A stretch of 23,178 nucleotides of DNA, taken from NCBI GenBank assembly GCA_037442925.1, contig JBBIPG010000035.1:1-23178 (forward strand). Reading direction: 5' to 3'. The translations under genes and the position numbers were made by a program. Source of the DNA: Candidatus Fraserbacteria bacterium. Its GTDB lineage: Bacteria; Bipolaricaulota; Bipolaricaulia; RBG-16-55-9. Numbering within the stretch: the stretch's first letter is position 1; each line of letters opens with the position of its first letter. Below are positions 1 to 16,041 of this stretch, piece after piece. The notes beneath the pieces were generated by a model. The model ran no database searches. It saw nothing but the letters and a program-made list of their open reading frames with translations, and was not told where the DNA came from.

Positions 1-47
1 GGAGGGGAAAAGGTGAGCGGGGGCATCACTGGAAATCCGCAGCGGAA

Positions 48-144
48 CGTCCCCAACGGGCATCCCAAGGATCTAGCGAAGCGTCTTCGAACCCGTGTTG
101 CCGGATTGAAAGCCCGGCGTCCTAGGCCTCTAGACGATGGGGAC
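48..144 (-). tRNA. tRNA-Glu (anticodon UUC) with a 24-nt insertion in the T-loop; no encoded CCA
   Basis: Minus strand reads GTCCCCA (acceptor) TC GTCTAGAGGCCTAGGAC (D arm) G CCGGG-CTTTCAA-TCCGG (anticodon arm) CAAC ACGGG-TTCGAA-[GACGCTTCGCTAGATCCTTGGGATG]-CCCGT TGGGGAC G. All four stems pair. The T-loop is 31 nt instead of 7. Confidence 0.9.
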
Positions 145-160
145 AAAACACCTACTAGGG

Positions 161-189
161 ATTATAGCTCTCAACATCGCCGGGTTCAA
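161..189 (-). promoter_or_regulatory. sigma70-type promoter for tRNA-Glu
   Basis: TTGAAC (189-184), 17 nt, TATAAT (166-161), 16 nt upstream of the tRNA 5' end. Confidence 0.8.
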
Positions 190-207
190 CTGCGGAAATG
201 AAGTCAG

Positions 208-1398
208 TTAGCGCTGTTTCTGCTTTGCGGGCTTAAGCCCCGCCCTCTCTCGCAATAACTCCGCTCTATCCCTGCGTTCCCAAGGCAGATCCAGTTCGGG
301 GCGCCCAAAGTGACCATATGCCGAGATCGGCTTGTAAATTGGCCTTCGTAAGTTCAAGTGTCCAATGATCGCCGCAGGGCGAAAGTCAAAGTGCTCTGCC
401 ACAAGCCTTTCAATCTCCTCATCGGGGATCACCCCCGTGTGAAAGGTATCCACCGTGATGGCCAGAGGCTGCGCCTGGCCGATGGCATAGGCCACTTGAA
501 CTTCGCATTCCTTGGCCAGTTCCGCCGCAATCACGTTCACAGCAGCGTAGCGCGCCATATACGATCCAGAGCGGTCGACTTTGGTGGGATCTTTGCCGGA
601 GAACGCTCCGCCTCCGTGACTCCCGTAGCCTCCATAGGTGTCGACTTCAATCTTGCGCCCGGTCATCCCCGTATCTCCCGGAGGACCGCCGATGACGAAA
701 CGCCCCGAAGGATTGATCAACAGCTTCGTCTTTTCGTCCAGCCACTCTCCTAAAACCGGGCGGATCACCTGCTCCGTCAGATCCTCCTTCAAGCGCCCCA
801 TCGGGATATCCGGATCATGCTGGGCGGAGAGCACAACGGCGTCTAGGCGTTGCGGCCGGTGGTCTTCATACTCCACCGTGACCTGCGATTTCCCATCAGG
901 TCGAAGATACGTGAGTGTGCCTTCCTTGCGAAGTTGGGCCAGCCTCTTGACTAAGCCGTGAGCCAGCGTGATGGGAAGAGGCATGAGCTCTTCGGTCTCC
1001 ACACACGCGTAGCCATACATGATCCCTTGATCGCCGGCTCCCAGGCTCTCATAGGGGTCTTGCGACGATCCCTTCACCACGGCCTGGGCGATATCTGGCG
1101 ATTGCTCATGCAGGGCAACGAGTACAGAGCACTGGTCGTACGAGAAGCCGTACTCTGGACGCGTGTACCCGATCTCCCGGACGGCCTCGCGAGCGATGGC
1201 GGCATAATCCAGGCGACAGCGGGTGCTGATCTCGCCACCGATGATCACTAGACCCGTGGTGACAAACGTCTCACAGGCCACGCGTGCTTGCGGGTCTTCG
1301 ACGAAGATCGCGTCCAGGATGGAGTCAGAGATGCGATCTGCCACCTTGTCCGGGTGGCCCTCGGTCACAGATTCCGATGTAAAAAGCCTTCTACCCAT
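208..1398 (-). CDS. metK: S-adenosylmethionine synthetase
   Basis: Motifs [50 protein letters not shown]. Start moved to ATG 1398 (MGRRLFT), with AAAGGA upstream. Confidence 0.98.
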
Positions 1399-1417
1399 GA
1401 GGGGTCCTTTGGGCGCG

Positions 1418-8031: not shown

Positions 8032-9291
8032 CTACAACTCTTGTTTTGTGTAGTCGACGAGCGGATCGTAGACGGCCTCTTGCTTGTCCATCCGTTGAGT
8101 GACGTGCAAGGCCCCTTGCGCGAAGCGTTCGAGATAGTGATCGTGAAACGCTTGGTGATCCTGAGCCCGGATGAATTTATCGCCCTGAGGGAACTCGAAG
8201 CCCGCAGCAATTTGTATGCCCTCTAGATATTGGACGATCTTGGGGTGATCGCTCCGGTTTTGCCATTCCGTCTCCTCTACAGCTTCCTTGATGAGATGCA
8301 CAATCTCCCAGCCGTACCAGTAGTGCGATCCCGTCGTGTGCCGCCCGGTGCCTTCTTCTGTGCCTTGAGGCGTGACCCCCACTTGGTTGCGGAATTGAGT
8401 ATCGAATTCCTTGAGGCTTTCCGGCACATCTGTCAGCCGATGTGGGTGATTTGAGACGTACCAGCTACCCTCGATGGCAGGCACGTCTTCGAGCTTGATG
8501 CCATCCACCGTGCAGATGACCCCAAAGACCTTCACTCTCTCTAGCAACCCTAACTCACCCGCCGTGGTCAAGAAGCGAAGCGCGTTGGCCCCTGGGAAGA
8601 CGTGGAAGAGCACTTCGGTGTCTGGGTTCACCTGGCTCAAGAAGGGCACAAAATCCACGGTATCCAATGGGATGAAGATCGTATCTAGTACCTGCGCTCC
8701 TACGCTTTGTAGCAAGGGTGGCCACTCGCTCGCATGGCTGCGACCAAACGCATAATCCGCCACGATGATCGTCCAGCGTCTTCCCAGATTCTCGACGGCC
8801 CAACGATGGGCCACTTGGGCGTGGCTGCGCACGGAGTGGTTCGCTCGGAAGATATAGCGATTGCCGGCTGGGCCCGTGATCTCGGTGGCCTCACCCAACG
8901 GGAAATAGACGGTCTTCAGTTCCTGAGCTACGGGGAGACTTGCCAAACTCACACCCGAGTGTTGCGAGCCGATGATGAAATCGGCGCCCTCTTGAACCAT
9001 CTTGTTGAGTTTGTCTCGTCCCACATCTGAATTCGTTGCTGTATCTTCCACCAAGAGCCTTACTTCGCGTCCTGTGATGCCCCCTTCGTTGTTGAGCTTG
9101 GAAATAGCCGCGCGCACGACCTTATCATGCCAATAACCGTAGTCGGGCAGGCTCCCTGTGAGATCCGCTTGCAAGCCAATGACGATGGGCTCTTGGGCTG
9201 AACGAATCTGCATAGGCCAGAGTGCTGCCAACGTGGCGCTTCCCGCCACCGTCTTAAGAAACGTTCGCCGAGTCATGCTACGAAGAGTCAT
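8032..9291 (-). CDS. Second ABC substrate-binding protein, paralog of 6011-7273, Tat signal
   Basis: TRRTFLK motif. Blocks shared with the first SBP: GNRYIF, WAVENLG.RWTII, FPQG..FIRA.DH.AFH.HY.E, VDYT.Q. Start at ATG 9291 (or 9276) after AAGGAGG. Confidence 0.88.
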   Translation of the reverse strand: MTLRSMTRRTFLKTVAGSATLAALWPMQIRSAQEPIVIGLQADLTGSLPDYGYWHDKVVRAAISKLNNEGGITGREVRLLVEDTATNSDVGRDKLNKMVQEGADFIIGSQHSGVSLASLPVAQELKTVYFPLGEATEITGPAGNRYIFRANHSVRSHAQVAHRWAVENLGRRWTIIVADYAFGRSHASEWPPLLQSVGAQVLDTIFIPLDTVDFVPFLSQVNPDTEVLFHVFPGANALRFLTTAGELGLLERVKVFGVICTVDGIKLEDVPAIEGSWYVSNHPHRLTDVPESLKEFDTQFRNQVGVTPQGTEEGTGRHTTGSHYWYGWEIVHLIKEAVEETEWQNRSDHPKIVQYLEGIQIAAGFEFPQGDKFIRAQDHQAFHDHYLERFAQGALHVTQRMDKQEAVYDPLVDYTKQEL

Positions 9292-13770: not shown

Positions 13771-13847
13771 TGGTACGCCCGGGAGGACTTGAACCTCCGA
13801 CCTGCGGTTTAGGAAACCGCTGCTCTATCCCGCTGAGCTACGGGCGC
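13771..13847 (-). tRNA. tRNA-Arg (anticodon CCU), CCA encoded
   Basis: GCGCCCG TA GCTC-AGCGGGATA-GAGC A GCGGT-TTCCTAA-ACCGC AGGTC GGAGG-TTCAAGT-CCTCC CGGGCGT ACCA. Confidence 0.97.
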
Positions 13848-13859
13848 TTGGGTCAGCTC

Positions 13860-13888
13860 ATGTTACCTCCGTAAAAGGGCCACGTCAA
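13860..13888 (-). promoter_or_regulatory. sigma70-type promoter for tRNA-Arg
   Basis: TTGACG (13888-13883), 17 nt, TAACAT (13865-13860). Confidence 0.7.
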
Positions 13889-13916
13889 GCGCGTAATCTC
13901 AGATCCGCAAAATCTC

Positions 13917-14063
13917 GGTAGTCCCCCATTTCAGTGCAGCTCTCAGATCGTCCGGACGTGATCCGTCAGCACGCTGCCATCGCGGGCGTCCTGAGCCACC
14001 CCGGTGCCGCAGACCCGCCGGCACTTCACCTCTCCTTTAACTGCACCTGTCTGGGGGACTACC
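13917..14063 (-). mobile_element. 147-bp non-autonomous IS remnant (IS1-family-like MITE)
   Basis: 23-bp imperfect TIRs GGTAGTCCCCCA-N5-GTGCAG at both ends. The minus strand encodes a degenerate transposase C-terminal motif RTPAMAA-(frameshift)-LTDHVRTI*EL. Confidence 0.75.
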
Positions 14064-14205
14064 TTAATCTTCTGGGATCTGATGATGAGGAGGTACTAGC
14101 GGTGCGCTTCCAGAGCGGCGAGGAGCTGAGTCCCACTCCTCGTCAATGCAAAATTACGCTCGTTAAAGTGTCGGTATCTTGTTTGATGCGAGTAGCCATC
14201 AGCAC

Positions 14206-14544
14206 TTACTGGTGCGCTAACTCGAATTCCCGAGGAAAGCGCTCTAAAACTAGGAGGGGTGGCGTCCTCGGAATAGGCTTATAAGTCACATGCAATGTGG
14301 CTACATATACGGGTTGACCCGCATCTCGTTGCCTCTCAGCAAGATCCTTGAGCCAAGTATTGAACGCCTCTACCTCAGAGGTGACTTTGGCAGTCACCGG
14401 CCCTTCCATCTTAAGCTGAAAGAGCACATATGCGTTCGAGGGCATATCGGAAGCGAAATCTGGGTCTTCAAGGATGCGACGATCAAAATCTGAGCTAATG
14501 ACGCTTAATAACTGCTCAAACCTCTTAAGTGTCGCTTTGTTCAT
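14206..14544 (-). CDS. DUF5647-like protein, putative antitoxin
   Basis: SSDFDRRILEDPDFASDMPSNAYV...FNTW...QPVYV resembles my recollection of DUF5647 (EFDRY.LEHP.F...IP.NA). ATGA overlap with the upstream gene; alternative start at 14556. Confidence 0.6.
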   Translation of the reverse strand: MNKATLKRFEQLLSVISSDFDRRILEDPDFASDMPSNAYVLFQLKMEGPVTAKVTSEVEAFNTWLKDLAERQRDAGQPVYVATLHVTYKPIPRTPPLLVLERFPREFELAHQ

Positions 14545-14882
14545 GGTATAGGCCACTTGCCTTTCAGAAAACGCTCCTGATAGGTCTTCCAGTTTGCCTC
14601 TATATCGCGCTCGGCTTCTGCTACAGCATCTTTGTATCCGGTCAGGAAGTCGAACTTGACATTGAGAAACTGCTTCTCTTGCTCGCCGGTGATCTTCAGC
14701 TGATCGCGATGCGGTCCTCCGTGCTGGGTATCATAACGCACAGCAGGTTGCCACCTATTGGGTTCGGTCTCGACTTCCAGCTGCACAAGATAGTCCATGA
14801 TCCTCTTGCCCTCTCGGGCGATCCAAAGTCGCCGCCGAGCTCCTTCACCCAGCGGCTTTACATATTCCCGTTCACGTATCAC
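14541..14882 (-). CDS. Small RYD-x2-H-x3-H protein (DUF7718/DUF6516 TumE-like), putative toxin
   Basis: VQLEV...W..AVRYDTQHGGPHRD...A..DI..NW..Y..RF. Upstream promoter TTGGCA, 18 nt, (TGn)TAAACT ends 9 nt before the GTG. Confidence 0.65.
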   Translation of the reverse strand: MIREREYVKPLGEGARRRLWIAREGKRIMDYLVQLEVETEPNRWQPAVRYDTQHGGPHRDQLKITGEQEKQFLNVKFDFLTGYKDAVAEAERDIEANWKTYQERFLKGKWPIP

Positions 14883-15015
14883 CAGAAGGGCAGTTTACCA
14901 CAAGGCTAAGGGAGCTGCCAAAACCATGTGACCGCCCCAGACCCCACTCACTTGACAGCTCCATGGCCTCTTGTGCTATGGTTATTCCCCTGAACGGTCA
15001 AAGGGAGCTTGTCTT

Positions 15016-15282
15016 TTACTCTTCGGATTCATCTTCTTCTCGAGGCTCCGCTTCAAAGCCGGGCTCAAAACTCATAAGAGGATATCCATCATGATCCTTC
15101 TCATGCACAGCCTTCCACAGCCTGACACCTTGAGGATCTAGAATGACTCTCTTCAGCGACAGTGCTCCGTCGTCGTATTCCCAAATGATAAGGTCATCCG
15201 ACGTGATCCGGTTCGGTTCCACTTCGACGGCTTCATCCTCCACTCTTGTGCCGTCGGGTGCGACAAAGACTTTTCTAGGCAT
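15016..15282 (-). CDS. Hypothetical acidic protein (88 aa)
   Basis: SD GAAGGAG before ATG 15282; own promoter TTGCAA (15341-15336), 17 nt, TAGAAT (15318-15313); no recognisable motif. Confidence 0.7.
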   Translation of the reverse strand: MPRKVFVAPDGTRVEDEAVEVEPNRITSDDLIIWEYDDGALSLKRVILDPQGVRLWKAVHEKDHDGYPLMSFEPGFEAEPREEDESEE

Positions 15283-15349
15283 CTGGACTCCTTCCCGTGG
15301 CAAGATGCGCTCATTCTAAGTGGTAAGCCGTTGAATTGCAAAAGAAGTC

Positions 15350-16030
15350 TTACGAAGTCAAGCGTTCGTACAGCTGTCTGGCCGCATCTTGCTCTGCTGC
15401 TTTCACCCGGCGTCCCCATCCAACGGCCGCTTGCCCTGCCAGTTCCACCTGCACGGTGAACTCCTTCTGGTGATCCGCCCCTCGCGCTTCGATGAGAGTA
15501 TAGATGGGACGTAGACCCCGCCTTTGGGCTTCTTCTTGGAGCAGCGTCTTGTAGTCAAAGCGGTGCTCGCCCTGATACGCTTTCTCAATCTCGCCCCGCA
15601 GCTGCCGTAGGACGAACTGAGTAGCTGCCTCGTAACCCTGCTGGAGGAAGATCACTCCGACCAGGGCCTCGAAGGCATCGCTCAGGATGGAACCGCGCTC
15701 CCGTCCCCCTCCTTCCGCCTCGCCTCTCCCTAAGAAGAGATACTTCTGTAAGCCCAATGCCTGAGCGTGCTTGGCCAGGGTCGGCCCGCTCACCACGACG
15801 GATTTGATCTTGGTGAGTTTGCCTTCGCTCAGGGAGTAATGACGGAAAAGGTATTCACTGATGGCGAGGTCGAGGACAGCATCGCCCAGAAACTCCAGCC
15901 GCTCGTTGGACTCCTGCCCTGCCGGGTTCTCATTGACGTAGGAGCTGTGCAGAAACGCCCGCTGGAGCTCTGTCTCCGGGATTTCCAGCTGGAGCTTATC
16001 TTTAAGCTCGGTGAGATCTTCTACCGTCAT
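15350..16030 (-). CDS. rnc: Ribonuclease III
   Basis: Signature NERLEFLGDAVL, SDAFEALVG, C-terminal dsRBD (DYKTLLQE...AAEQDAA). Start at ATG 16030, because the longer ORF runs through a tRNA. Confidence 0.96.
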   Translation of the reverse strand: MTVEDLTELKDKLQLEIPETELQRAFLHSSYVNENPAGQESNERLEFLGDAVLDLAISEYLFRHYSLSEGKLTKIKSVVVSGPTLAKHAQALGLQKYLFLGRGEAEGGGRERGSILSDAFEALVGVIFLQQGYEAATQFVLRQLRGEIEKAYQGEHRFDYKTLLQEEAQRRGLRPIYTLIEARGADHQKEFTVQVELAGQAAVGWGRRVKAAEQDAARQLYERLTS

Positions 16031-16041
16031 GGCTTCGCGGG

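Follow-up and report, generated by a model that had tools for sequence, protein, structure and literature searches.

Among the islands catalogued by Islander, 5′ fragments of the target tRNA gene are reported for 159 of 3919 and damaged fragments for 148, damage denoting in that work that a 3′ fragment has lost a few bases close to the discriminator (PMC4383910). The same paper gives, in a footnote to its Table 1, the concept of sublocation for the crossover within a tRNA gene. Recombination of the 5′-distal type is described as much less frequent in a further source (PMC6563490), with reference to Zhao and Williams (2002, J Bacteriol 184:859), and the tRNA remnants left by mobile elements are reported to be often mis-called as tRNA genes (PMC9897764). 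As to interrupted tRNA genes, the introns of bacteria are described as group I or group II introns near the anticodon, and the non-canonical tRNA introns of archaea as requiring particular types of EndA (PMC4033280). A literature search found no description of a T-loop insertion in an att-site copy of a tRNA gene, which is not proof of absence.

The window analyzed here, a stretch of 23,178 nt, is contig C35 of the genome labeled G000 (2.07 Mb, 94% complete; C-numbers denote its contigs), and it carries a tRNA-Glu(TTC) gene on the minus strand (144-48). Positions 1-59 of the tRNA (G1 to A59; window 86-144) are followed by 25 nt (61-85) in place of T60, a net gain of 24, and then by positions 61-73 (48-60), that is, C61 to G73, comprising the 3′ strand of the T-stem, the acceptor strand and the discriminator, with no CCA. 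All four stems are intact. The sequence-only reading had described the gene in these terms, as a tRNA-Glu(UUC) with intact stems and 25 nt at 61-85 where 1 nt is expected, and its coordinates and counts were right; the promoter it had placed just upstream, TTGAAC-17-TATAAT, was likewise found, at 189-161 on the same strand, as a sigma-70-type site of the ancestral tRNA-Glu gene that scores 10/12 (expectation in shuffles, 0.1). Farther upstream, also on the minus strand, lies a SAM synthetase-like gene (208-1398), which from its translation we take to be metK, and which serves as a synteny marker upstream of the ancestral tRNA-Glu. On the other side the tRNA gene stops 47 nt short of the contig end, and these bases (1-47, minus strand), which differ from the DNA behind the intact copy described below, are likely the first bases of an integrative element cut by the contig end. 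The gene is missed by ARAGORN and has no Rfam match at E≤1. A structural scan for T-loops of 9-60 nt recovered 39 distinct normal tRNAs in the 2.07-Mb genome and this gene as the sole tRNA with a long T-loop, and the same scan of 2.3 Mb of fetched loci (153 normal tRNAs) found no other, so that the search for further T-loop inserts that had been suggested turned up none; the match at the window is not due to chance.

The count of tRNA-Glu(UUC) genes, another step suggested from the sequence, proved more telling. ARAGORN finds 48 tRNA genes in the genome, including an intact tRNA-Glu(TTC) on the minus strand at C9:44658-44731. This copy and the window copy are identical over positions 1-59 and 61-73, with the identity starting exactly at G1 and the insert as the only difference. 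In the relatives, 27 of 27 tRNA-Glu copies examined have a normal T-loop (from 29 relative loci, two being missed by the pattern), and a pattern of the T-loop, 12-40 nt and the Glu 3′ end occurs in one of the 184 genomes of the phylum, namely G000. The insert was also sought in JGI metagenome contigs and in viral contigs, with no match in either, in scans that may omit the window's own genome and very near ones. The sequence-only reading had offered a spliced mini-intron, a tolerated long T-arm or a scar in a redundant copy, and had held that an intact second gene, insert-free relatives and the lack of a spliced or aminoacylated product would together speak for a recent pseudogene; the first two were found, and of its three options it is the scar that they favor, over the other two. 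We therefore regard the window gene as probably a redundant and likely non-functional tRNA-Glu, the likely left junction of a small reversed tyrosine-integrase element, and the scar itself as very probably real rather than an artefact.

The neighborhood of the two copies points the same way. In six of the eight genomes of the family an intact tRNA-Glu(TTC) follows metK within 2 kb, in G001 with a near-identical promoter before it, and in G006 the order is metK, intact tRNA-Glu, class V aminotransferase, small gene and tRNA-Lys, which represents the empty site with a single intact tRNA. Judged by this gene order, the window copy is at the ancestral place of tRNA-Glu. The genes that follow tRNA-Glu in G006 are matched behind the intact copy, by C9:42438-41302 (the aminotransferase, 73%) and C9:41207-40986 (the small gene), with five small genes, toxin-antitoxin pairs among them, separating the intact tRNA-Glu from the aminotransferase. 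This stretch (C9:42523-44580) includes BrnT/CopG-antitoxin, DUF433/DUF5615 and DUF6941 genes and is absent in G006; a displaced 3′ fragment of the tRNA was sought in it and not found. On the 5′ side of the intact tRNA-Glu are a divergent integrase, HTH and RHH genes and, truncated where the contig stops, a DUF3987 gene. The integrase, of the tyrosine type (C9:44844-45770; PF00589, E 1.9e-38), lies head-to-head with the tRNA gene at a distance of 113 nt, possesses the R/K/H-x-x-R/H/Y catalytic motifs and has no stop. The metK-tRNA-Glu synteny on one side and the gene matches to G006 on the other suggest that the two copies likely flank one element, the middle of which is absent from the assembly; as the ends of C35 and C9 share no overlap of at least 8 nt, the join is inferred from the synteny with G006 and G001. 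Contig C72 was considered as the missing middle and rejected, its gene order and tail matching the C8-type element.

A promoter candidate for the C9 copy, TTGCGT-17-TAGAAT, lies 12 nt before G1 and scores 8/12, which is below the calling rule of the promoter-scan tool. The 47-nt flank of the window copy shows no significant likeness to the ends of other elements or to the C9 end (p 0.17-0.9); such end-to-end likeness reaches p<0.05 in at least one orientation in seven of nine relatives, over a flank longer than the 47 nt of the window. The same element was not found elsewhere, the best integrase relatives being only 56-59% alike, nor was it found in viral contigs. A second element with an integrase of the same family (G000:C76:1521-2612) is present in tRNA-Leu(TAG) in the usual orientation, with a 73-nt displaced copy (positions 12-84) at C8:47763-47835.

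In terms of the described systems, the locus probably resembles the reversed (5′-fragment) tRNA islands, as these are presented in the sources above, with the integrase beside what would be the regenerated tRNA and the displaced copy upstream at the host promoter, a probable crossover in the T-loop region and an element of likely a few kb. It differs from them in that the displaced copy, rather than being a truncated 5′ fragment, is full length with a 24-nt T-loop insertion, and in that the two ends are on separate contigs. It also resembles the remnants of mobile elements described in PMC9897764, in that a complete copy is accompanied by something tRNA-like left over where an element ends, but those remnants are partial, whereas the window copy keeps every base but T60.

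Relatives of the integrase are encoded in 36 of the 184 genomes of the phylum at E≤1e-30, and among 158 loci checked 22 are reversed, the tRNA facing away from the integrase, 26 are normal and 110 are without a nearby tRNA, the otherwise rare reversed geometry being thus common in this integrase group (22 versus 26 among loci with a nearby tRNA). In an integrase tree (n=19) the G000 enzyme groups with four other reversed ones (94/91), while reversed and normal integrases do not form two clean clades. At least two orientation changes are forced on the tree, which makes the group suitable for the study of flips in target orientation.

Both ends were seen for 12 related reversed elements, of about 5-11 kb, which do not represent 12 independent events, as L104 and L108 are close kin. 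Not counted among them, for lack of a far end, are G002-Thr, G024-Ser, G024-Arg(CCG), G044 and G050; within the fetched flank the far end was also not found for 13 of the 22 reversed loci, likewise not counted, nor for L203, which was resolved through G119. The copy at the host-promoter end is broken in 11 of the 12. Nine of the far copies stop at positions 62-71 (L104, L108, G015, G024-Arg(CCT), G118, G124, G137, G142 and G178), two are full length with a duplication of 14-15 nt in the anticodon arm and lie mid-contig (G119, G140), and one is intact (G004); none has a T-loop insert. A promoter-like site of at least 8/12 precedes 14 of 15 integrase-side copies, as compared to 4.5% of random 80-mers, the exception being the G004 element, whose far copy is intact and keeps the host promoter. 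In that element the whole tRNA-Gly(GCC) is duplicated as an 81-bp direct repeat (L084:264-339 and 8918-8998), and the integrase-side copy is without a promoter-like site.

One more recurrent feature is a motif of 15-20 nt that overlaps the ribosome-binding site of the integrase gene and recurs 40-80 nt inside the far end, seen in L104, L108, L084, L085, L087, L090, L091, L092 and L094. It is likely an arm-type integrase site, through which int could be autoregulated as well.

None of the nine truncated far copies has lost the T-loop, and each retains two or more bases of the 3′ strand of the T-stem; in the L108 far copy the T-arm matches the tRNA of its own host as far as the loop, and right after the T-loop an element flank of the L104 type begins. 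The truncations and this switch in sequence point to the T-loop as the place of crossover, and they fit a layout in which the T-stem would provide the core sites (for the concept of sublocation, PMC4383910). In G000, too, the identity of the two copies breaks inside the T-loop, after A59.

The insert, which thus sits at the likely crossover, reads as a degenerate head-to-tail repeat of the tRNA's positions 54-74. It aligns to a doubled 54-74 unit with p = 0.0002 (5000 shuffles), this unit is the best in a scan over all unit boundaries, with 0 of 400 shuffles reaching the score under the same scan, and when the 48 tRNAs are compared as sources, only the two Glu genes score 26-27 and the rest no more than 19. 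The match to a single whole tRNA is weak (p = 0.08); stretches of the nearby tRNA are pieced together in the insert, and their homopolymers are shortened. The 24 extra bases consist of pieces of the tRNA's own 3′ end and are scrambled local sequence, as are the duplications in G119 and G140. In the latter two genomes, which belong to two genera, the duplications are tandem repeats of 14-15 nt of the palindromic anticodon arm in an orphaned tRNA-Gly(CCC) (L090:5182-5275 in G140, L094:11405-11491 in G119); the orphaned copy of G137 is without one. Self-derived repeats are thus present in three of 13 far ends, as the T-loop insert of the window and the two anticodon-arm duplications.

The course of events that we propose is as follows. 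The element would have arrived with a promoter of its own as well as a 5′ portion of the tRNA gene and recombined at the T-loop, so that a working tRNA-Glu was rebuilt at the integrase end and the host promoter was left driving the other copy. Either an integrase reaction gone wrong or slippage where the strands cross over would have produced the insert, which would have been tolerated because the window copy is a spare. The insert would draw T-loop bases 54-59 into other pairings, leaving a transcript unable to serve as a tRNA, and it would break the att core, so that the element would no longer excise cleanly. The maker of the insert may have been the integrase, replication slippage or a library chimera. 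A wider proposal, that the reversed elements of the phylum take a host tRNA hostage and that short repeats of the tRNA's own sequence are written into the orphaned copy by the integrase, is in our view unlikely.

The alternative that survives best, though we consider it unlikely, is an assembly or library artefact in which the element and its geometry are real but bases 1-85 are chimeric or a dead-end tip of low depth, the actual left copy being either intact or simply truncated. It agrees with the position of the insert, 61-85 nt from a contig end that overlaps no other contig, with its make-up of self-derived pieces, and with its presence nowhere else (1 of 184 genomes, no JGI metagenome or viral contig). 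However, no irregularity is seen up to the final base at the other contig ends that bear a tRNA (C4, C13, C34/C66), self-derived insertions in the orphaned copy are found mid-contig in G119 and G140, and the second tRNA-targeting element, running from C76 to C8, is likewise broken inside, so that an assembly break at the window element is not unusual. Data from four sequencing runs, X1 to X4, were examined as contigs. X1 matches window positions 115-1400 with no differences and has neither cover at 1-47 nor a contig with the insert, a hole that proves nothing, as a dead-end branch would be clipped. A 74-nt tRNA record in X1 has a depth of 26.7, versus 16.8 for the flank, where 27.9 is predicted for two copies sharing 59 nt, 33.6 for two intact copies and 16.8 for one copy, the depth being a sum that includes other organisms too. 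In X2, from a strain about 96% identical, the 74-nt record includes the upstream bases of the window and continues past 86 with other letters; its loose ends may be read as an intact T-stem, a weak sign of an intact native gene there. The element and the redundancy of the tRNA stand even if the insert is an artefact.

Less probable still is the entry of a separate tiny element, or of an older island remnant, into the spare copy, which would involve the loss of 10 nt behind A59, the gain of a foreign hairpin of about 20 nt and a 13-nt duplicated tail of the tRNA. The insert does contain a 4-bp hairpin, and its first five bases are those of tRNA positions 70-74, but the remaining insert also aligns to the 3′ end of the tRNA, there is no second copy in the genome, and the fold is no better than that of shuffles (z = +0.65).

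Very improbable, in our opinion, is that the strong native promoter drives a tRNA that works despite its extended T-arm. The intact stems and promoter would suit it, but perfect stems are already expected of a recent duplication, the extended arm is conserved in no relative, and when the cloverleaf is forced, the predicted pairing probability of bases 54, 56, 58 and 59 is 0.94-0.96, the bases needed for the elbow being predicted to pair within the insert. Pairing of these T-loop bases would remove the D/T elbow of the tRNA.

We give next to no credence to a mini-intron at 59/60 that would be excised by proteins at a relaxed BHB, with RtcB as the ligase, even though the locus shares with the non-canonical introns of Thermoproteales, as described in PMC4033280, a short insert in the T-loop region, a drawable relaxed BHB and an RtcB in the genome. 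The weak BHB-like fold proposed from the sequence can indeed be drawn as stated, with the cut after 59, as a four-pair helix with two 3-nt bulges, but it is at chance level: the helix has one Watson-Crick and three G-U pairs, whose probabilities stay at 0.001-0.017 even when the cloverleaf is forced, and a helix as good arises in 8% of shuffled inserts for a cut at 59 or 60 and in 35% if any register is allowed. Splicing would, moreover, yield G60 where the twin has T60, and there is no other T-loop insert in the genome. As to the enzymes that had been named for a search, EndA (PF01974) was found in none of the 184 genomes of the phylum, against control matches in four archaea, and RtcB is encoded in G000, as in many bacteria (10 of 14 controls). 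The rtcB gene (C7:737-3577, minus strand) contains an intein, about 500 aa long, that includes a LAGLIDADG-like domain. In contrast to the archaeal introns as described in PMC4033280, the insert belongs to a phylum with no EndA in the 184 genomes searched, has a chance-level BHB and an intact twin, is not conserved and is self-derived. A group I or II self-splicing intron was rejected, since, although here too a bacterial tRNA gene is interrupted, such introns sit by the anticodon with a catalytic core of about 100 nt (PMC4033280), whereas the insert has 24 nt, lies in the T-loop and has no Rfam match, and a bacterial-intron reading is not supported.

As read here, the tRNA-Glu gene of the window is no more than what integration into tRNA genes ordinarily leaves behind, and it carries a warning: a tRNA gene that looks intact, has a strong promoter and seems to hold an 'intron' may be the scar of an att site, and tRNA finders miss it. 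If the insert was made by the integrase and excision is blocked, the locus would be a natural example of an element made permanent by capturing an essential tRNA, with the element locked in and the one tRNA by which the cell reads GAA dependent on a promoter of the element. It would then also present one DNA-level route to intron-sized inserts at tRNA position 59/60.

Some further observations concern the other tRNA genes of the genome. A tRNA-Ala(GGC) is missing from the 48, and a hidden, T-loop-inserted one was sought by the structural scan and not found; of tRNA-Arg, the GCG and TCG anticodons are present and ACG is absent. The genes for tRNA-Val(TAC) and tRNA-Asp occur twice, adjacent at the end of C4 and 5 kb apart on C13 (39991-45278), the latter pair with a new promoter before Asp and no integrase match, and the two arrangements look like two alleles in one assembly. 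In the window itself, between tRNA-Arg(CCT) and tRNA-Gln(TTG) (13847-16039), there are several uncharacterized short genes (14206-15303), which may be what is left of a small island.
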